Below are positions 47,522-54,205 of a DNA stretch of 64,000 nucleotides, in pieces. This DNA comes from Candidatus Coprenecus stercorigallinarum (GTDB lineage: Bacteria > Bacteroidota > Bacteroidia > Bacteroidales > UBA932): assembly GCA_018711305.1 (NCBI GenBank), contig DVIL01000014.1, forward strand, positions 9,996-73,995, given 5' to 3'. The translations under genes and the position numbers were made by a program. The number at the start of each line of letters is the position of its first letter. The stretch's first letter is position 1. Below the pieces are notes generated by a model. It was given only the letters and a program-made list of their open reading frames with translations. It ran no database searches and was not told the DNA's origin.

Positions 47522-47926
47522 TTATTTCTTTCGGTACTTTTGATTACTGGCGTTAGGGTTATCAGGATTTGTCATTTCCAAATATCCGGCTTCAACCAAT
47601 GATGTTACATATTTTTCTCTGTTTTTGGTGTGCGAAGAAACTCCTACACGGTTTAAAATTTCTTTAGCACTTCTTGGAACGCTGCAAAATTGAATTATAT
47701 CTTTTTCTTTATTGGTTAATTTCCTTCGTTGAGGACTAGTGTCTAAGTCAGTGTCAGGGTTTGTCCTGATGGTGTCTAAGTCAGTGTCAGAATTTGCCTG
47801 GATAGTGTCTAAGTTTCCCTTTCTGGCTATCGTAATCAGAAACTCATGTGTCCTTTCGTCATTCTTGAACTCTACCTTGCTCATTTCGCCACGGTCTCTG
47901 AGTTGTAATATATCTTCTGTTGTCAT
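47522..47926 (-). pseudogene. internally deleted AlbA_2 / winged-helix putative DNA-binding protein
   Basis: The AlbA_2-like opening (EMSKVEFK) joins directly to a DTDLDT repeat linker and the C-terminal wHTH (EKDIIQFC...AKEILNRVG...YVTSLVEAGYLEM). At 134 aa it seems far shorter than full-length family members as I recall them. Confidence 0.55.
47739..47813. repeat. 33-bp tandem repeat, about 2.3 copies
   Basis: GTGTCTAAGTCAGTGTCAGGGTTTGTCCTGATG, repeated from 47772 and 47805. Encodes the DTDLDTI(R/Q)(T/A)N(P/S) repeats. Confidence 0.9.
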
Positions 47927-48113
47927 AATAATCAATTCTGGATTAGATGTGCCGCATAAACCCACACCCGGTCATAGCCGCCGTATAGGGGCTTTTAATG
48001 TCCGTATTCATCTTGCGTCTGTAAATTCTGAATTTACTGCAAAGTAACATAAAAATCCGGATAGACAGTCGTGGATTCACGAATAAAATATTTGCTCCTG
48101 GAAAAATAAGTTC

Positions 48114-48121
48114 TATCTTTG
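48114..48121 (+). promoter_or_regulatory. candidate -7 box (TATCTTTG) for the Met/Thr operon leader
   Basis: Perfect TAnnTTTG, 8 nt upstream of the leader ORF ATG and about 200 nt upstream of metX. Confidence 0.45.
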
Positions 48122-48129
48122 TCTCCGCA

Positions 48130-48210
48130 ATGAGAAAGCACTCCAACATATCCATGATGTCCATGCGAATGCATCGCTCTACGATGCATGGCTTTCTCTA
48201 TTGCCGGTAA
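48130..48210 (+). CDS. candidate Met-rich leader peptide (26 aa): MRKHSNISMMSMRMHRSTMHGFLYCR
   Basis: ATG...TAA ORF with 5 internal ATG codons out of 25. It overlaps a perfect 8-bp hairpin and sits upstream of metX-thrA-metY-asd. Confidence 0.4.
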   Translation: MRKHSNISMMSMRMHRSTMHGFLYCR

Positions 48211-48321
48211 GTCAGGCGGGATGCCGGCTCCGGCGCATTAAATCCAAAAATACATATCAAGTATTCCACAGGTCCGGATTCTGCCCCCGGGACTGGTTTG
48301 GATTTATCGTTACGGGCATCA

Positions 48322-49386
48322 ATGGAGCATCACGCGATGACAAGAGAAGAATATGTCCACAATGGACCGTTCCGGTGTGAGGCCGGAGGCACAATCAGCA
48401 ATCTGAAAATAGTGTACCACATCTCCTGTCCGGAGGGACTGCCGGCATGCAGTAGCCTGGACCATGATTCAGAGAACCGCACAAATGGGAAGGTGATATG
48501 GATCTGCCATGCGCTGACGGCCAATTCGGATCCGGAGGAATGGTGGCCGGAGATGGTCGGACCGGGCCGGCCCATAGACACTGAAAGGTACACGGTGGTC
48601 TGTGCCAATATGCTCTGCTCGGCCTACGGCTCTTCCGGCCCGGCGGACGGGGCTTTTCTGGATTTCCCGAAAGTGACGGTCCGGGATATTGTCCGCACCG
48701 AGATTCTCCTGTGCCGGCATTTAGGCATCGGTAGGATAGACCTGCTGATAGGCAGCTCCATCGGCGGCTTCCAGGCCCTGGAGTGGGCGGTGATGGAGCC
48801 GGAGGTGATAGGCCGTGCCGCGATTATGGCCTGCGGTCCCAGAGTTACACCCTGGCTCACTGCGTCCAACGAGGCCCAGAGGATGGCGATCGAGGCCGAC
48901 CCTACCTTCCGTGAGTGCCGGAGCCTCAGCGACGGAGAGGCCGGACTGAGGGCGGCAAGAGCTATAGCGCTGATTTCCTACCGCAGCTATCGGGGCTACA
49001 ACACCACTCAGAATGAGGAGGATCCCGACACCCTTTTCGCCACCCGCGCCGCCTCCTACGAGCGCTATCAGGGCCGCAAGCTTTCCGACCGTTTCGACGC
49101 CTATTCCTATTGGTATCTGACTCATTCCGTGGACAGTCACAATGTGGGCCGGGGACGAGGAGGTGTGGAGGCGGCTCTCCGGGGCATCAGGACCCGCTGC
49201 ATCATCGTAGGCATAGACAGCGACGCCCTTTTCCCGACAGAGGAACAGCGGTATATGGCCGACCACATCCCCGGGGCGGAATACCACGAGATAACCTCCG
49301 CATTCGGCCACGACGGCTTCCTGCTCGAATACGGCCAGATATCGGAGATTCTCAGGCCGGAGTTAGAGGCTCTGGGACAATTTTAA
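48322..49386 (+). CDS. metX: homoserine O-acetyltransferase
   Basis: Alpha/beta hydrolase with GSSIGGFQALEW nucleophile motif and SAFGHDGFLLE C-terminus. Start could be ATG 48322 or 48337. Confidence 0.9.
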   Translation: MEHHAMTREEYVHNGPFRCEAGGTISNLKIVYHISCPEGLPACSSLDHDSENRTNGKVIWICHALTANSDPEEWWPEMVGPGRPIDTERYTVVCANMLCSAYGSSGPADGAFLDFPKVTVRDIVRTEILLCRHLGIGRIDLLIGSSIGGFQALEWAVMEPEVIGRAAIMACGPRVTPWLTASNEAQRMAIEADPTFRECRSLSDGEAGLRAARAIALISYRSYRGYNTTQNEEDPDTLFATRAASYERYQGRKLSDRFDAYSYWYLTHSVDSHNVGRGRGGVEAALRGIRTRCIIVGIDSDALFPTEEQRYMADHIPGAEYHEITSAFGHDGFLLEYGQISEILRPELEALGQF

Positions 49387-49409: not shown

Positions 49410-51896
49410 ATGCAGGTATTGAAATTCGGCGGCACATCTGTCGCAAACGCAGAGAATATGTCAAGGGTCGCGGATATCGTGACCAAGGCTGTGGACCGGG
49501 ACAGGACCATTCTGGTCTGTTCTGCCATCAGCGGCTTTACCGACGCCCTCATCCGGACCGGCCGTATGGCTGCGGCGCGGGACGAGGCTTACAAGAGTAT
49601 CATAGACGAGTATCAGGAGAAGCATTACCGGATCATTCACAGCCTGATCCAGGCTGACAAGCAGCGCGGTACCCTAGAGGCGTGCGATGCGGTGTTCGAG
49701 TCGCTCAGAGGCATCGCCAGGGGAGTCTGCCTGTTGGGCGAGCTGAGCGAGGCCAGCTTAGATGCGATACAGGGCTGCGGAGAACTCCTGTCAACCAGGA
49801 TAATGGCCGTCCGCCTGGCCTCGGAGGGCATTCCGGTAAAATGGGTGGATTCCCGCGAGATAATCCGGACAGTGCGCAAGGACGGGGTGAATGTGGTGGA
49901 TACGGCTGTCAGCTACGCCAATATGGTTGCAATGCTGGAGCGCAATCCGGTGACTTCGCTGTTTGTCCTGCCCGGCTTCATCGCCTCTGACAGTCAGGGA
50001 CGTACCACGACTCTCGGGCGGGGCGGCTCCGACTATTCGGCTTCCCTGCTGGCCGTGGGTTGCGGGGTACGGCGCCTGGAAATCTGGACCGACGTGCCAG
50101 GAATGATGACGGCCAATCCCAAGACCGTCCCCACGGCCCGTACCATCAGCAACATCTCCTACCGTGCCGCATTGGAACTGTCTCATTTCGGTGCCAAGGT
50201 CATCTATCCTCCCACCATCCAGCCGGTGGTCTCCGAAGGCATTCCCATCTACGTCAAGGACACTTTTGACCCGGACGCGCCGGGAACCCTTATCGAGAAG
50301 AACCCGCCCCGGAGCAAGGAGAGGCTGGTGGGTATTTCCAATTCGGACAATATTGCCCTCATATCCCTGGAAGGCAGCGGCATGGTAGGTGTACCCGGCT
50401 TCTCGGCCCGCCTCTTCGAGGCCCTCAGCCGCAGCGGTATCAACATCATACTCATCACCCAGGCCTCTTCGGTCCACACCATGTGCGTGGCCATCCCGGA
50501 GAAGGACGCGGAGAAGGCCAGGGAGGCGGCGGACAGCTGTTTTGCCTACGAGATATCGTTGGGCAAGCTCAATCCCCTGAAAGTCGAGCAAGGCTATTCG
50601 ATAGTATGCCTCGTAGGGGACGACATTCTCAGCCAATGCGGTACGACGGGCCGGATGCTCGATGCCCTCGGCCGTCACGGGATACCTATCAGGGCCACGG
50701 CCCAGGGCTCGTCCGAGCGCAATATCTCAGTGGTGGTGCGCTCCTCCGAGGCGGACCGGGCCATACGCTACATCCACAATGAGTTTTTCGACAGGTCGCC
50801 GCTGAAGGACATCAATCTGTTCATCACCGGCTACGGCACTGTGGGCAAGGCCCTTGTGGACATCATCCAGCACAATGGGGATGCGGTGGCGGCCCGGACC
50901 GGGAAGCGGCTGCGCATAGCGGGGATAGCCAACAGCCGCCGCTACGTGCTGGATCCGGAGGGAATTGCCCCGGAGAGGGCAGGGGAGCTGCTTGCCCAGG
51001 GCCTCAGCGCGGCTGACGATGCCTGGACGGAGGCCCTTGCCCACACCTCTTTGGAGAATTCCGTATTTGTCGACAGTACCGCGAGTGCGGACATAGCCTG
51101 CCGGTACGCCTCCCTCTTCCGTCACGGGTATTCGGTCGTGGCCTGCAACAAGATCGCCTTCTCCGCCCCGTTGGCCCAGTACCGGGCGTTGAGGAAGGCT
51201 GCCTTGGAGAGCGGTGCGGGGCTGAGGTACGAGACGACGGTCGGAGCGGCCCTGCCGGTGCTGGAGTCCGTGGCCCGCTGTGTCTGCAGCGGAGACCGCA
51301 TCCACCGGGTCGAGGCCGTGCTGTCCGGGACACTCAACTACATCTATAGCACATACGACGGCGGAAAATCGGTGACATTTGCCGAGGTGGTGCGTCAGGC
51401 CGTGGAGAAAGGCTATGCCGAGCCGGATCCGAGGATAGACCTCAGCGGACGGGACGTTCTGCGCAAGCTGTTGATTTTAGGCAGGGAAGCCGGAGCCGCA
51501 CTGGAGGAGGGGGACGTGGAGGCGGAGCCGCTGCTGCCGCAGGAGTACTTCCGGGGGAGCGTGGAGGATTTCTACAAGGCATTGGAGGACAATGAAAAAT
51601 CCTTTGCGGAGCAATACCATCAGGCGACTTCCCGGGGGCTGCGCCTCCGTTTCGAGGCCTCCCTGGAGAGGGTTCCGCTCTCTGGGGATGAATCCTCCGG
51701 AGCCTCCCCTTGCCGCTGGAAAGCCCGCATTGCATTGGAGGCATTGTCCCCCGAGCATCCGCTTTATTCGCTTGAAGGGACCGACAACGCCGTGATTCTG
51801 ACCACGGATTTCTATCCCTCGCCCTTGGTCATACGGGGTGCGGGTGCCGGAGCGTACCAGACGGCCTCCGGAGTATTGAACGATATTTTAAAGTAA
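49410..51896 (+). CDS. thrA: bifunctional aspartate kinase / homoserine dehydrogenase
   Basis: MQVLKFGGTSVANAENM kinase opening, ACT region and a C-terminal HSD domain. The ORF-track extension from 49110 overlaps metX and is not used. Confidence 0.93.
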   Translation: MQVLKFGGTSVANAENMSRVADIVTKAVDRDRTILVCSAISGFTDALIRTGRMAAARDEAYKSIIDEYQEKHYRIIHSLIQADKQRGTLEACDAVFESLRGIARGVCLLGELSEASLDAIQGCGELLSTRIMAVRLASEGIPVKWVDSREIIRTVRKDGVNVVDTAVSYANMVAMLERNPVTSLFVLPGFIASDSQGRTTTLGRGGSDYSASLLAVGCGVRRLEIWTDVPGMMTANPKTVPTARTISNISYRAALELSHFGAKVIYPPTIQPVVSEGIPIYVKDTFDPDAPGTLIEKNPPRSKERLVGISNSDNIALISLEGSGMVGVPGFSARLFEALSRSGINIILITQASSVHTMCVAIPEKDAEKAREAADSCFAYEISLGKLNPLKVEQGYSIVCLVGDDILSQCGTTGRMLDALGRHGIPIRATAQGSSERNISVVVRSSEADRAIRYIHNEFFDRSPLKDINLFITGYGTVGKALVDIIQHNGDAVAARTGKRLRIAGIANSRRYVLDPEGIAPERAGELLAQGLSAADDAWTEALAHTSLENSVFVDSTASADIACRYASLFRHGYSVVACNKIAFSAPLAQYRALRKAALESGAGLRYETTVGAALPVLESVARCVCSGDRIHRVEAVLSGTLNYIYSTYDGGKSVTFAEVVRQAVEKGYAEPDPRIDLSGRDVLRKLLILGREAGAALEEGDVEAEPLLPQEYFRGSVEDFYKALEDNEKSFAEQYHQATSRGLRLRFEASLERVPLSGDESSGASPCRWKARIALEALSPEHPLYSLEGTDNAVILTTDFYPSPLVIRGAGAGAYQTASGVLNDILK

Positions 51897-51905
51897 ACAT
51901 ATTTT

Positions 51906-53204
51906 ATGGAAAGAAATTACAGATTCGAGACCCTGCAGGTCAGGGCAGGACAGGAGATCGACCCTGTCTCCAAAGGCACGGCGGTGCCCATCTACCAGAG
52001 TACGGCGTATGTCTTCGACGACATGCAGTACGGCAAAGAGCTTTTCGAACTCAAGAAACCGGGCAATATCTACACCCGCATCACCAACACCACCAACGAG
52101 GTATTCGAGAAGCGTATGGCGGCCCTCGAGAACGGGGTGGCGGCCACGGCTACGGCTTCGGGCCAGTCAGCGGTGCTGCTCAGTATCCTGAACATTGCCG
52201 GACCGGGGGACAATGTGGTGACCTCTCCCTTCCTCTACGGCGGCACCTTCACCATGTTTGCCATTACCCTCAGGGACATGGGGATAGAGATGCGTTTTGC
52301 GGCCAGTGACTCTCCGGAGGACTTGGAGGCGCTGGTGGACGGCAGGACCAAGGGTATTTTCATAGAGAACCTGGCCAATCCGGCTTTCAGCATCCCGGAT
52401 TTCGAGCCGATCGTGGAGATGGCCCGCCGCCGCGGTATCTGCGTGCTGGTGGACAATACTTTCGGCATGGCCGGCTGGCTGCTGCGTCCGGTGGACTGGG
52501 GCTGCAATGTGGTGATTCATTCGGCTACCAAATGGATCTGCGGACACGGTACGGCCCTCGGCGGGGTGGTAGTGGACGGAGGCAATTTCGATTGGGATCC
52601 TGAGAAATATCCTTTGCTCGCGGCCCCTTCGGAGAGCTATCACGGGGTGGTCTACACCGATGTGTTCGGGAAGGCGGCCTTCGCCGGACGTGTGAGGGTG
52701 GACGGGCTGCGCAATCTCGGGCCGGCTCCCTCGCCGTTCAACTCCTTCCTGATGCTGCAGGGGCTGGAGACCCTCTCGCTCAGGGCGGAGCGGTGCTGTG
52801 ACAATACCCTCGAGGTGGCCCGTTTCCTGACCTCGCATCCGGCGGTGGAGAGTGTCAACTATCCCGGTCTGGAGGACAATCCCTATCATGCCCTTGGCTG
52901 CAAATACCTCAGGCACGGCTTCGGCGGAGTGCTCACCTTCAGGGTGAGAGGCGGATTTGATGCCGCGGCGGCCTTGGTGGACCGGCTGGAACTGATCCTG
53001 CACGTGGGCAGCGTAGGGGATGCCAAGTCGCTGATAGTGCATCCGGCTTCCACGACCCATTCGCAGCTCAGCCCGTCCGAGCAGGTGGCCGCCGGGGTCT
53101 ATCCCAACATGCTGCGCCTGTCGGTGGGCATTGAGAATGTGGATGACCTGATTTACGATCTGGAGAATGCCTTGGATTCTTTGCAGGGGAGGGCAGGACT
53201 ATGA
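51906..53204 (+). CDS. metY: O-acetylhomoserine aminocarboxypropyltransferase (sulfhydrylase), PLP-dependent
   Basis: 432 aa. HSATKWICGHGTALGG PLP-lysine region; Cys/Met metabolism PLP family. Confidence 0.92.
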   Translation: MERNYRFETLQVRAGQEIDPVSKGTAVPIYQSTAYVFDDMQYGKELFELKKPGNIYTRITNTTNEVFEKRMAALENGVAATATASGQSAVLLSILNIAGPGDNVVTSPFLYGGTFTMFAITLRDMGIEMRFAASDSPEDLEALVDGRTKGIFIENLANPAFSIPDFEPIVEMARRRGICVLVDNTFGMAGWLLRPVDWGCNVVIHSATKWICGHGTALGGVVVDGGNFDWDPEKYPLLAAPSESYHGVVYTDVFGKAAFAGRVRVDGLRNLGPAPSPFNSFLMLQGLETLSLRAERCCDNTLEVARFLTSHPAVESVNYPGLEDNPYHALGCKYLRHGFGGVLTFRVRGGFDAAAALVDRLELILHVGSVGDAKSLIVHPASTTHSQLSPSEQVAAGVYPNMLRLSVGIENVDDLIYDLENALDSLQGRAGL

Positions 53205-54205
53205 GAGTGGCGGTTGTAGGAGCTACCGGGCTGGTCGGCTCGGTGATGCTGAAAGTCTTGGAGGAAAGGCATTTTCCTGTGACGGAGCTGCTGCCGGTGG
53301 CTTCGGAGAAGTCGGTGGGAAGGTCAGTGCGCTTTGCCGGCTCGGATGTGCAGGTGGTGGGAGCTGAGACAGCTCTGGCAGCGCGTCCCGACATTGCCCT
53401 GTTCTCGGCCGGGGCCTCCGTCTCCCGGGAGCTGGCTCCCCGTTTCGCTGCCGTAGGCTGCCGGGTGGTGGACAATTCCTCCTGCTGGAGGATGGAGCCC
53501 GGCGTGCCGTTGGTGGTACCCGAGATCAACGGCAATGTGCTGGGCCCCGGGGATATGATCATCGCCAATCCCAACTGCTCCACGATACAGATGCTCATGC
53601 CTCTTGCCCCGCTGCACCGCCGCTGGGGCATACGCCGCATCGTGGTCTCCACCTACCAGTCCGTTTCCGGGTCAGGCTACAAGGCCTTGGCCCAGATGCA
53701 GGCGGAAAGGGCCGGAGGCAGGTGGGGAGAATATCCGGCGGCCTATCCCCATCCCATTGACCTGAACATCCTGCCGCATATTGACAGTTTCCTCGACAGC
53801 GGCTACACGAAGGAGGAGATGAAGATGGTGAACGAGACGCACAAGATATTGGGGGACGAGGGCATTACCGTGTCGCCCACGACGGTGCGGGTACCTGTGA
53901 CCGGAGGCCATTCGGAATCGGTCAACGTGGAACTGTCCAGGGAGTTCGACCTTGGGGAGGTCCGTGCCGTCATTGCTTCCACCCCGGGCTGTGTCCTGCA
54001 GGATGACCCGTCTGCCGCTGTCTATCCCATGCCGTTGTATGCCCAGGGCAGGGACGAGGTCTTCGTCGGCCGCATCCGCCGCGACCCCACCGTCCCCCAC
54101 GGCCTCAACCTCTGGTGCGTCGCCGACAACCTCCGCAAGGGAGCCGCCACCAATGCCGTCCAGATTGCGGAGCTGCTGCTGCCGTTCCTTCCGCTGCAGT
54201 CCTGA
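53201..54205 (+). CDS. asd: aspartate-semialdehyde dehydrogenase
   Basis: 334 aa. VVGATGLVG NAD motif, active-site ANPNCSTI and SVSGSG. Confidence 0.95.
   Translation: MRVAVVGATGLVGSVMLKVLEERHFPVTELLPVASEKSVGRSVRFAGSDVQVVGAETALAARPDIALFSAGASVSRELAPRFAAVGCRVVDNSSCWRMEPGVPLVVPEINGNVLGPGDMIIANPNCSTIQMLMPLAPLHRRWGIRRIVVSTYQSVSGSGYKALAQMQAERAGGRWGEYPAAYPHPIDLNILPHIDSFLDSGYTKEEMKMVNETHKILGDEGITVSPTTVRVPVTGGHSESVNVELSREFDLGEVRAVIASTPGCVLQDDPSAAVYPMPLYAQGRDEVFVGRIRRDPTVPHGLNLWCVADNLRKGAATNAVQIAELLLPFLPLQS

Follow-up and report, generated by a model that had tools for sequence, protein, structure and literature searches.

The amino acids with known leader-peptide attenuation are Trp, His, Phe, Leu, Thr and Ile/Val, to which Cys has been added more recently. 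Methionine is, to our knowledge, not among the amino acids sensed in this way, and our search of the literature on methionine leader peptides and on leader peptides in Bacteroidetes found no methionine leader peptide. Methionine genes are usually controlled by SAM riboswitches, T-boxes and MetJ/MetR-type proteins; of these, T-boxes are, as far as we know, essentially absent from the Bacteroidota.

In the mycobacterial poly-Cys leaderless ORFs, Cys-responsive translational attenuation has been established experimentally (Canestrari et al., bioRxiv 10.1101/834739). They share with the candidate methionine leader described here a short ORF at the extreme 5' end of the transcript (in our case by prediction), a place ahead of a biosynthetic operon, and a cluster of codons for the end product. 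The logic that we propose is also the same, in that a stalled ribosome blocks a duplex masking the start of the next gene, and no intrinsic terminator is needed. The differences are that the amino acid is methionine and not cysteine, that the hosts are Bacteroidota and not Actinobacteria, and that the target is a start region lacking a Shine-Dalgarno (SD) sequence instead of an SD. The M-R-M-H-R / hairpin module of our element has no counterpart in the mycobacterial system.

The E. coli leaders trpL, hisL, thrL, pheL and leuL (Rfam Trp_leader, His_leader, Thr_leader) also have a short ORF with codons for the regulated amino acid, the number of which varies between species, together with a hairpin extending from the end of the regulatory codons and alternative pairings that depend on the position of the ribosome. 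Unlike them, the present element has no conserved U-run terminator hairpin, no demonstrable antiterminator and no Rfam match, and its ORF would start almost at the 5' end of the transcript, with no SD. The ermCL and catA86L systems resemble our proposal in that an arrested leader ribosome remodels mRNA pairing and frees a downstream start region; their arrest depends on drug and peptide and concerns resistance genes, whereas the presumed trigger here is a shortage of charged tRNA. Within the Bacteroidetes, the Bacteroid-trp motif is interpreted as a Trp leader-peptide attenuator. Like our element, that motif (RF01692; Weinberg et al. 2010, PMC2864571) is a cis-regulatory candidate ahead of amino acid biosynthesis genes, but it concerns another amino acid, has another sequence and gave no match by cmscan. 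SAM riboswitches (SAM-I, SAM-II including its long-loop Bacteroidetes variant, SAM-III to SAM-VI, and SAM/SAH) occupy the same 5' leader position and do the same physiological job; they bind SAM directly through an aptamer, whereas no such aptamer is detectable here.

The locus lies in a 64,000-nucleotide stretch of DNA from Candidatus Coprenecus stercorigallinarum, which we call the window. Its features are as follows.

48091-48094, forward strand: TTTG, a possible -33 promoter element (direct reading; spacing to the -7 box).
48114-48121, forward strand: -7 promoter box TATCTTTG, consensus TAnnTTTG (direct reading; family conservation).
48127-48139, forward strand: 5' strand of helix P1 (GCAAUGAGAAAGC), which includes the leader start codon and pairs with 48191-48204 (-18.4 kcal/mol).
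48130-48210, forward strand: leader ORF of 26 codons plus stop, MRKHSNISMMSMRMHRSTMHGFLYCR (reading; type-A comparison).
48151-48162, forward strand: core (UCCAUGAUGUCC), complementary to the metX start region (helix prediction).
48154-48171, forward strand: putative regulatory Met codons 9, 10, 12 and 14, ATG ATG TCC ATG CGA ATG (type-A alignment).
48163-48177, forward strand: module AUG CGA AUG CAU CGC, encoding M-R-M-H-R, near-invariant in the family.
48169-48189, forward strand: hairpin P2 (AUGCAUCG / CGAUGCAU), starting at the last Met codon and kept in the family.
48191-48204, forward strand: 3' strand of P1, a pyrimidine tract (GCUUUCUCUAUUGC) (pairing; variant comparison).
48216-48234, forward strand: conserved GCGGGAUGC element, then hairpin GCCGG-CU-CCGGC.
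48239-48306, forward strand: clade-specific structured insert with a 10-bp outer stem and a bulged inner hairpin.
48314-48326, forward strand: anti-core (GGGCAUCAAUGGA), 11-23 nt upstream of the metX ATG and containing ATG 48322.
48337-49386, forward strand: metX (homoserine O-acetyltransferase), the first gene after the leader, with an in-frame alternative start at 48322.
49410-51896, forward strand: thrA (aspartokinase / homoserine dehydrogenase).
51906-53204, forward strand: metY (O-acetylhomoserine sulfhydrylase).
53201-54205, forward strand: asd (aspartate-semialdehyde dehydrogenase).

The initial annotation of this DNA had proposed a methionine-sensing leader ORF ahead of genes of the Met/Thr branch, and its description of the 5' region holds: the -7 box is present, an ATG follows 8 nt 3' of it, and this opens the 26-codon ORF, which ends with a stop codon at 48208-48210 and has Met at codons 9, 10, 12, 14 and 19 and a single Thr codon (18). 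The perfect 8-bp hairpin that it reported (48169-48176 with 48182-48189) was also found; Met codon 14 lies in the 5' arm of this AUGCAU palindrome, and Met codon 19 arises from the 3' arm. The downstream genes are indeed those encoding MetX, an aspartokinase/homoserine dehydrogenase, an O-acetylhomoserine sulfhydrylase and Asd. The MetX alignment places the start of metX by conservation at ATG 48337, with ATG 48322 as an in-frame alternative further upstream. The spacing of TTTG to the -7 box fits the Bacteroides promoter consensus, from which the TAnnTTTG form of the box is also taken (PMC7366714), and on this consensus transcription would start a few nucleotides past the box. One copy of the core motif is found in the 64 kb window, where 0.01 would be expected, and when folded the 220-nt leader is more stable than 200 of 200 shuffled sequences (z = -2.86).

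About 30 distinct Bacteroidales sequences have this element at the head of a metX or a metY-metX-thrA operon, and the versions ahead of metY-metX-thrA differ in architecture. Of the 80 MetX loci taken from GTDB genomes, 12 have the ORF with its promoter box, which are also present in 24 hits from metagenomes; metagenome hits such as L102, L088, L089 and L092 were rejected as chance matches within unrelated coding sequence. All 43 occurrences of the module among the fetched loci are upstream of metX or metY, with none elsewhere in the approximately 1 Mb of fetched DNA. A Proteiniphilum-like locus was searched for a Met-rich leader and none was found, and a protein database search with a leader peptide of 39-43 aa gave no candidates. 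The family is recognisable by ATGCGAATGCATCG a few dozen nucleotides past the TAnnTTTG box, and can be described by the pattern ATGCGAATGCAWCG-N3-9-GWTGC. It is worth adding that all of the hosts seen here are apparently uncultured.

Across the family, the TAnnTTTG box is found 5-19 nt ahead of the leader start codon. It ends 8-9 nt before the ATG in nearly all of the type-A leaders and 5-19 nt before it in the other variants, and takes the variant form TAAATTGC/TACATTGC in one lineage (L081/L114). The start codon, at the 5' end, is strictly conserved and its flanks are variable. The frame that follows has 16-49 codons and is open in every member: the 17 distinct type-A ORF heads have neither an indel in nt 1-48 nor an in-frame stop, and the longer variants have 0 stops in 374 in-frame codons, compared to 46 and 13 in the other two frames. 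The ancestral ORF of the window's clade has 16 codons (13/17 distinct ORFs), the 26-codon form being derived from it by a 2-nt insertion in the hairpin loop. In type A, Met is found at codons 9, 10 and 14 without exception, and codon 12 encodes M, K or T. There are between 2 and 9 Met codons per leader in a variable arrangement, with in-frame variation in the length of the runs (MMM, MMMM, MMMMMM), and in one leader (L125) the Met run is swapped for a Thr/Ile-rich tract resembling thrL. A codon-position bias in substitutions was sought in the long variants and none was found, so that there is no positive signature of selection on the peptide; a variable part lacking selection at the amino acid level is what would be expected if the peptide itself has no function. 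Judged by its conservation, the leader ORF is more than a chance occurrence.

This comparison across Bacteroidales, in which the ORF, the promoter box and the Met codons are kept in some 30 distinct sequences, thus bears out the initial idea of a Met-sensing leader ORF as far as a comparative test can, while the length of 26 codons and the details of the proposed attenuator are not general. Sister species that lack the leader carry in its place a gene for a divergent Lrp/AsnC-like regulator, which suggests that the leader is an exchangeable regulatory module.

The module AUG CGA AUG CAU CGC is found in 32/32 sequences, in both architectural types, and its sole variant (CAU to CAA) is accompanied by a matching change in the hairpin partner. 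The corresponding end of the ORF, S-M-R-M-H/Q-R, encoded by AUG CGA AUG CAU CG, is almost invariant, and is followed by the stop codon either immediately or after 3 or 10 further codons. P2 has 96% of cells paired in 24 sequences, with a loop of 4-7 nt, although the covariation is thin, consisting of one compensatory pair (U-A to A-U). Its 3' arm is read as M-H in some members and as D-A in others, or is located past the stop codon, and is therefore conserved as RNA and not as peptide. The RNAalifold consensus of the 5' domain contains nothing beyond P2 and a mini-hairpin of 5 bp, each of which hardly varies. Both CGAAUGCAUCG and, in their synonymous positions, the codons AUA7 and CGA13 are nearly invariant to a degree that exceeds what sensing by Met codons needs.

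The second helix, P1, is formed by the region of the leader start codon and the pyrimidine tract. Among 18 leaders, the cognate pairs are more stable than non-cognate ones (permutation p = 0.0009), and since the sequences are phylogenetically related this and the Wilcoxon p-values are optimistic. Its place after P2 gives the pyrimidine tract the look of a terminator tail, but in the longer variants the tract is upstream of the Met codons, and it is therefore better read as a helix strand. Further downstream, GC-GGGAU-GC is the loop of a covarying hairpin in most type-A leaders, with related GGAUC/GGAUGC elements in other variants; the idea that the GGGAU loop pairs with the P2 5' arm was considered and rejected, there being no covariation in the three AUGCAAC sequences, and the L126 comparison being all that speaks for it. 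The structured insert at 48239-48306 is confined to close relatives of the window (the L001-L003 group). The attenuator details of the initial annotation can all be found in the window, and none of them extends beyond its small clade. They are the competing GCCGG/CCGGC pairings (48203-07, 48223-27 and 48230-34), the 9-bp long-range stem (48239/40-48248 with 48297-48305/06) and the bulged hairpin at about 48271-48294, taken with its T-run as a terminator. The classical terminator/antiterminator layout which these details were thought to make up is likewise not conserved.

What is conserved instead is the pairing of the Met-codon core with the region of the metX start, and this points to translational control and away from classical transcriptional attenuation. 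In the window, core and anti-core are predicted to form a helix of 12 bp interrupted by one bulge (-17.8 to -20.9 kcal/mol), and the ensemble pair probability is about 0.65. In type-A leaders the core duplexes have energies between -14 and -21 kcal/mol, with z values of -2.3 to -4.3 relative to shuffled sequences, and the partner lies within -39 to +7 of the metX AUG in 12-13 of the 18. Compensatory C-G to A-U changes between species are seen at ORF nt 24 and 33, which are variable positions of the core. The helix was not detectable in 5-6 of the 18 type-A leaders, nor in 9 of the 12 longer variants, and the output mechanism therefore cannot be universal.

The effect of a ribosome on the start region was estimated from opening energies, the mean unpaired probability having proved uninformative, and a footprint of -12 to +15 around the P site was assumed. 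A stalled ribosome at the regulatory codons would by its geometry overlap one strand of the duplex. In the window, opening the start region of metX is predicted to cost 8.9 kcal/mol if a ribosome sits on Met codons 9-14 and 14.7 if it sits at the stop codon; the ribosome-free leader gives 9.0, no predicted difference from the stalled state, so that the contrast arises only against a ribosome at the end of the ORF. Over the family the mean difference in opening cost is 3.0 kcal/mol, and it is positive in 16/18 leaders. When nt 10-40 are blocked, opening becomes cheaper by a mean of 2.9 kcal/mol, compared to -0.2 for a control block.

We give an even chance to the proposal that the element is a methionine-responsive leader-peptide attenuator acting mainly on metX translation. 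What the comparison shows is that the ORF, its Met codons, P2 and the long-range pairing are conserved; on the model that we propose, events would run as follows. Transcription would begin a few nucleotides past the -7 box, placing AUG 48130 almost at the 5' end of the mRNA, and the short ORF would be translated. When charged Met-tRNA is scarce, the ribosome would stall with Met codon 9, 10, 12 or 14 in the A site, its footprint masking the core (48151-48162). The anti-core (48314-48326) would then be unpaired and metX would be translated; initiation in Bacteroidetes relies on an unstructured start region and not on an SD sequence. When methionine is plentiful, the ribosome would read on through P2 and the P1 3' strand until it reaches the stop codon, and the core, emerging behind it, would pair with the anti-core and close the metX start region. 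The lower translation of metX might also reduce the thrA-metY-asd message by polarity, though this is speculation. Two further points weigh on the proposal. The ORF would need leaderless or near-leaderless initiation, whereas 5' UTRs of less than 10 nt make up only about 3.7% of those in B. thetaiotaomicron (PMC7366714), which counts against the attenuator model. Methionine starvation should also deplete initiator fMet-tRNA, which complicates a sensor based on Met codons.

Several other readings of the same features were weighed. A classical ribosome-mediated transcription attenuator, in which stalling swaps a terminator for an antiterminator fold or prevents the loading of Rho, so that read-through is regulated and not metX initiation, seems to us rather unlikely. 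The layout is that of trpL or hisL, with a short ORF, regulatory codons and a possible pause hairpin from the last of them, and in most long variants the start region is open and AU-rich and not sequestered by the Met-codon run. One leader (L126) has a canonical terminator, GCGGC-AUUUUAA-GCCGC-CUUUUUAU, 45 nt past the ORF, although in constrained folds this is retained for every ribosome position tried. Complementarity exists between the conserved GGAUGC element and the P2 5' arm, and the change from CGC/GCG to CGG/CCG between type A and L126 hints at an alternative pairing. Two alternatives were found, one in which the 5' arm of P2 pairs with GCGGGAUGC and one in which the long-range helix is set against P1, and neither is in competition with a terminator. 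A terminator scan of 18 type-A and four type-B leaders found no site beyond P2 with the pyrimidine tract. That combination was rejected as an intrinsic terminator, because the tract is a strand of P1 and precedes the Met codons in the long variants, and because the stop codon is in the P2 loop, where a ribosome would block termination when methionine is abundant, which is the wrong logic. The candidate at 48271-48305 in the window was also rejected, being clade-specific and non-canonical and failing the scan. Turning to the 5' domain itself, the core, P2 and the GGGAU loop could be a riboswitch or protein site for SAM, methionine or a regulator, with the ORF incidental or serving only in the expression platform. 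A stretch of about 30 nt hardly varies, synonymous sites at AUA7, CGA13 and CAU15 included, and the one freely varying wobble position, Ser8, is in a predicted 3-nt loop or covaries with the anti-core; the unbiased substitutions and the significant folding of the leader agree with this, and SAM riboswitches are the usual regulators of such genes in other phyla (PMC2864571). Such an RNA-only sensor is nevertheless improbable: the start codon is strictly kept between variable flanks, the frame stays open in divergent sequences in which the other frames contain stops, the Met runs vary in frame and can be replaced by a Thr/Ile run, and the two architectures have no complex fold in common beyond one 7-bp hairpin. 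The Rfam searches also speak against it. The cmscan of the window returned nothing for the leader at gathering score or at E <= 10 (no T-box, SAM/SAH or leader family), and the window and 32 related loci, at gathering and permissive thresholds, gave only tRNAs and chance-level matches. SAM riboswitches were undetectable in the window, in 16 sister loci that lack the leader and in 16 loci that have it. No known riboswitch thus accounts for the leader.

The conservation of the peptide motif can be read in a further way, as that of an arrest peptide in which nascent S-M-R-M-H/Q-R stalls the ribosome on methionine or SAM sensed in the exit tunnel, and not through a shortage of Met-tRNA. Arrest peptides of this kind include TnaC, which senses tryptophan, and SpeFL, which senses ornithine. 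The motif is present in every member, including those with just two Met codons (L125, L126), Arg16 varies synonymously only, the sole replacement is H to Q, and the Met codons alone leave the conservation of S, R, H and R unaccounted for. We consider it very unlikely even so, since the nucleotides of the motif may be conserved because they make up the P2 5' arm and contribute to the long-range helix, and since invariant synonymous sites such as CGA point to a constraint on the RNA. The position of the stop codon relative to the motif also varies, unlike the arrest of TnaC at its stop codon, and, short of an inverted downstream logic, a stall induced by a ligand would turn expression on at high levels of that ligand. 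In a broader form, AUG-CGA-AUG-CAU-CG with P2 would be a dedicated sensor embedded in a translated ORF, either as a nascent-peptide/RNA element through which methionine or SAM would directly cause the ribosome to arrest, or as a minimal ligand- or protein-binding hairpin that needs to be read by a ribosome; this is doubtful, and if true it would be a new class of metabolite sensor in the Bacteroidota, coupling a leaderless mini-ORF to an SD-less start region. Finally, the palindrome ATGCATCG...CGATGCAT might be a DNA operator for a dimeric repressor just past the promoter, with the ORF irrelevant. It has perfect dyad symmetry at +40 to +60, and three sequences show the symmetric double change ATGCAAC/GTTGCAT. 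The spacing of its half-sites varies (ATGCAT-N6, -N7 and -N9-ATGCAT), as is normal among hairpin loops and unusual among operators, and the ORF, the Met codons and the long-range complementarity are left unexplained, making this reading barely credible.

If the leader-peptide attenuator acting on metX translation is real, methionine would join the amino acids sensed by means of stalled ribosomes, and the question would arise how sensing by Met codons can work when initiator Met-tRNA is needed at the same time. It would also be the first worked example in the Bacteroidota of metabolic control by masking of a start region, in a setting where initiation is not led by a Shine-Dalgarno sequence. 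The element could be annotated across metagenomes by its motif. Many abundant gut Bacteroidales are uncultured and show no SAM riboswitch at these loci, and for them it would explain how the branch from homoserine to homocysteine is controlled.

The leader upstream of metX and the operon that it heads contain the following features, all on the forward strand.

48114-48121, +: -7-type promoter box TATCTTTG, read in the sequence
48130-48210, +: leader ORF MRKHSNISMMSMRMHRSTMHGFLYCR of 26 codons, its ATG lying 8 nt past the box, read in the sequence
Codons 9, 10, 12, 14 and 19 of the leader ORF, +: Met codons, read in the sequence
48169-48176 / 48182-48189, +: perfect 8-bp hairpin, read in the sequence
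49410, +: start of thrA, downstream of metX

The perfect box with its ATG, the ORF with its five Met codons, the GCCGG/CCGGC repeats, the AAATCCAAA/TTTGGATTT stem and the bulged hairpin reported in the initial annotation are all present in the window where that annotation placed them, and the downstream genes are indeed metX, thrA, metY and asd. Conservation (alignment A1) places the MetX start at the ATG at 48337, with the ATG at 48322 being an alternative start in the same frame. The 220-nt leader has a fold better than all of 200 shuffled sequences (z = -2.86). A known riboswitch had been named as an explanation to exclude, and Rfam returned no family for the window at the gathering score, and none for the leader alone even at E <= 10.

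A MetX profile search using one genome per GTDB species gave 80 Bacteroidales loci, 12 of which carry the same ORF, with clustered Met codons, ahead of metX. Scanning metagenome contigs with a DNA pattern yielded 24 more true matches, every one upstream of metX; about ten other matches were due to chance, being sited in unrelated sequence. The 17 distinct ORF heads of the leaders built like that of the window (type A) have the consensus M-x5-(F/Y/N)-I-S-M-M-S-(M/K/T)-R-M-(H/Q)-R, with no indels and no in-frame stops in nt 1-48. Thirteen of them end at codon 17 and three at codon 20. In the window's clade the stop comes at codon 27; here a 2-nt insertion within the hairpin loop indicates that the 26-codon form is derived, and Met19 exists since the AUGCAU palindrome has its 3' arm in the reading frame. 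The ORF is thus conserved. At synonymous positions the codons AUA (Ile7; 48148-48150) and CGA (Arg13; 48166-48168) are fixed in all 17 type-A ORFs, and CGA in 32/32 family members examined. In other bacteria these two codons are typically decoded slowly. Methionine sensing does not account for this invariance.

All fetched loci were screened for a short ORF following a -7-like box and having at least three internal Met codons. In distant Bacteroidales this revealed a second architecture, in which the ORF (for example MNRENIIQIHSGRTSSASLSVMSAAMMMMMMRMHRQMHQ) lies about 1.5 kb upstream of metX, immediately 5' of metY. Further variants were obtained from the fetched loci of MetY homologues.

MetY-homologue loci, leader peptide ...SLSMMMMRMHRKMHS
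MetY-homologue loci, leader peptide ...FSMMMRMHRRMHQ
MetY-homologue loci, leader peptide MQEKTYILLLDRRDNLSPMMVSCMSMMMMRMHR*
MetY-homologue loci, leader peptide MHRHSHINLSMRITMMRMHRCDA...
MetY-homologue loci, leader peptide ...SSSMMMNKRMHRHDA...
MetY-homologue loci, leader peptide MIKTSTHNLLISITGNNSVVSVCMVSLMEMCMRMHRKMHLFYS
Relative locus L126:1234-1360, GTG-start leader MKEKSFILISALSMRMHR*
Ahead of an operon containing thrA, Thr/Ile-rich leader MHNKSIIEDLICGTTTASISFCMTTTLNTGITSNITTSATTIASMRMHR*, reminiscent of thrL

In the L126 variant the start codon comes 5 nt past the -7 box, and only two of the internal codons are Met. The leader at L125:1235-1384 (…CMTTTLNTGITSNITTSATTIASMRMHR*), upstream of metY-metX-thrA, is rich in Thr (12 codons) and has several codons for Ile; it looks like a thrL-type leader fused to the SMRMHR module, which suggests dual Thr/Met sensing. 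No cultured host was identified for any family member.

Common to all members is the module UCN AUG CGA AUG CAU/A CGN. After it come a loop of 4-7 nt and G(A/U)UGCA(U), and together these form the hairpin P2. The module occurs 43 times in the roughly 1 Mb of DNA fetched, each time upstream of metX or metY. Between start codon and module the ORF frame has no stop in 374 codons, the other two frames having 46 and 13. No codon-position bias of substitutions was detected in the variable part of the ORF, implying that its peptide sequence is not under selection, as expected for a leader peptide. A frame that is always open, that carries codons for the end-product amino acid in varying number and arrangement, and that heads the operon making this amino acid is what marks out a sensory leader ORF. 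The element is almost certainly a real, conserved cis-regulatory leader, and is probably a translated Met-sensing ORF.

A TAnnTTTG-like box ends 8-9 nt ahead of the ATG in nearly all type-A ORFs, with a variant box in one lineage (L081/L114). This -7 motif matches the consensus of the primary Bacteroides sigma factor (PMC7366714), so that the transcript 5' end should fall within a few nt before the ORF start. Among the 5' UTRs of B. thetaiotaomicron, those of less than 10 nt make up only about 3.7% (PMC7366714).

Several helices recur in the type-A leaders. P1 pairs 48127-48139, including the leader AUG, with a pyrimidine tract at 48191-48204 downstream of P2 (-18.4 kcal/mol); across 18 leaders, cognate P1 pairs are more stable than non-cognate ones (p = 0.0009, which is optimistic because the sequences are related). 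The Met-codon core is complementary to a region that overlaps the metX start or sits immediately 5' of it: in the window, 48151-48162 pairs with the anti-core 48314-48326 through 12 bp and a single bulge (-17.8 kcal/mol). In 12/18 leaders the best core partner falls within -36 to +4 of the metX AUG (z -2.3 to -4.3 against shuffles), and variable core positions covary with their partners, ORF nt 24 being C-G in 3 and A-U in 8, nt 33 C-G in 10 and A-U in 2, and nt 17 and nt 35/36 behaving likewise. The window's minimum free energy fold consists of P1 and P2; a fold with the core/anti-core helix is less than 2 kcal/mol above it, and this helix has a probability of about 0.65 in the ensemble. A hairpin loop GC-GGGAU-GC (48216-48224) is kept in most type-A leaders (positions in L004-L099), and the other variants have related GGAUC/GGAUGC elements. 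The loop and the P2 5' arm (GCAUCGC) are complementary, with covariation solely in the comparison with L126.

The palindromic ATGCAT arms of P2 could be read as a DNA operator, but the spacing of the half-sites varies (N6, N7, N9), which favours an RNA hairpin. The P2 3' arm is read as Met-His or Asp-Ala depending on lineage, and lies past the stop codon in most type-A leaders; it is therefore conserved as RNA. Covariation in P2 is thin, consisting of a single U-A to A-U change in three sequences, the remainder being invariant. As to output, the initial annotation proposed a ribosome-stalling leader-peptide attenuator. The leaders have no canonical terminator in common, and the stem 48239-48306 with its inner hairpin is confined to the window's closest relatives. 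The sole terminator-like site, P2 with the pyrimidine tract, uses a strand of P1, and with a stop codon sited in the P2 loop its logic would be inverted. Translational attenuation is therefore the favoured model. If a ribosome is taken to occupy -12 to +15 about the P site, one awaiting Met-tRNA at codon 9, 10, 12 or 14 would cover the core, while one that has gone on to codon 19 or to the stop would expose it and keep P2 and P1 open. For the window's metX start region the predicted opening costs, which are thermodynamic and not kinetic, are 8.9 kcal/mol with a ribosome stalled at Met codons 9-14, 14.5-15.8 kcal/mol with one at codon 19 or the stop codon, and 9.0-9.1 kcal/mol with no ribosome. 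The stop-codon state is on average 3.0 kcal/mol dearer than the stalled state (positive in 16/18 type-A leaders), and with nt 10-40 blocked the cost falls by 2.9 kcal/mol (control block, -0.2).

The sequestering helix is undetectable in 5-6 of 18 type-A leaders and in 9/12 long variants, and L126 carries a canonical terminator after its ORF (GCGGC-AUUUUAA-GCCGC-CUUUUUAU), with a U-tail complementary to its purine-rich 5' end. The output may therefore vary by lineage, or there may be a transcriptional or Rho component. That the window's copy acts through unmasking of the metX start region is about as likely as not. Methionine limitation also affects the initiator tRNA, and the sensor would need to operate regardless.

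At L002:3960-4010, in the L002/L003 clade, the anti-core AUG begins a 6-codon ORF (MDIDNQ*) whose UGA overlaps the metX AUG (AUGA); in the window (48322-48339) it shares the metX frame (MEHHA-MTRE). Regulated initiation may take place at this upstream AUG. Within the clade-specific insert, ACATATCAAGT (48252-48262) resembles the leader core ACATATCCATG (48146-48156), and may be a duplicated fragment of it.

In the 300 nt ahead of metX, the Cryptobacteroides sister loci lacking the leader (L008, L011, L013, L017-L022, L024, L026) show an Lrp/AsnC-like gene transcribed divergently, two TAnnTTTG boxes, and a short 5' UTR containing a small covarying hairpin (AAUCGG/CCGAUU, UCGGU/ACCGA, UCAG/CUGA) immediately before UUGAUUAUAUG; Rfam gave no match upstream of metX. 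This gene and hairpin suggest that one form of regulation has replaced another, and the hairpin may be a separate undescribed control element of the same operon.

It is worth adding that a small divergent minus-strand ORF (47522-47965), whose C-terminus matches Pfam Fic-like_C (PF21247), contains about 2.3 copies of a 33-nt tandem repeat (GTGTCTAAGTCAGTGTCAG..., 47737-47814), predicting an 11-residue protein repeat. A 14-nt inverted repeat (47913-47926 / 48337-48350, 13/14 identical) makes the first codons of this ORF (ATGACAACAGAAGA) and of metX (ATGACAAGAGAAGA) near-identical when each is read in its own direction; chance or a common start context could account for this.

Full-text searches aimed at a methionine leader peptide, or at studies of leader peptides in Bacteroidetes, turned up no methionine leader peptide. 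Short ORFs in long 5' UTRs are described, unvalidated, in the B. thetaiotaomicron transcriptome (PMC7366714). Weinberg et al. described the Bacteroidetes RNAs Bacteroid-trp and SAM-II long-loop (PMC2864571), neither of which matches the window leader. Compared with known leader-ORF attenuators, what would be new here is the amino-acid specificity, the phylum-specific SD-less output, and the invariant module.
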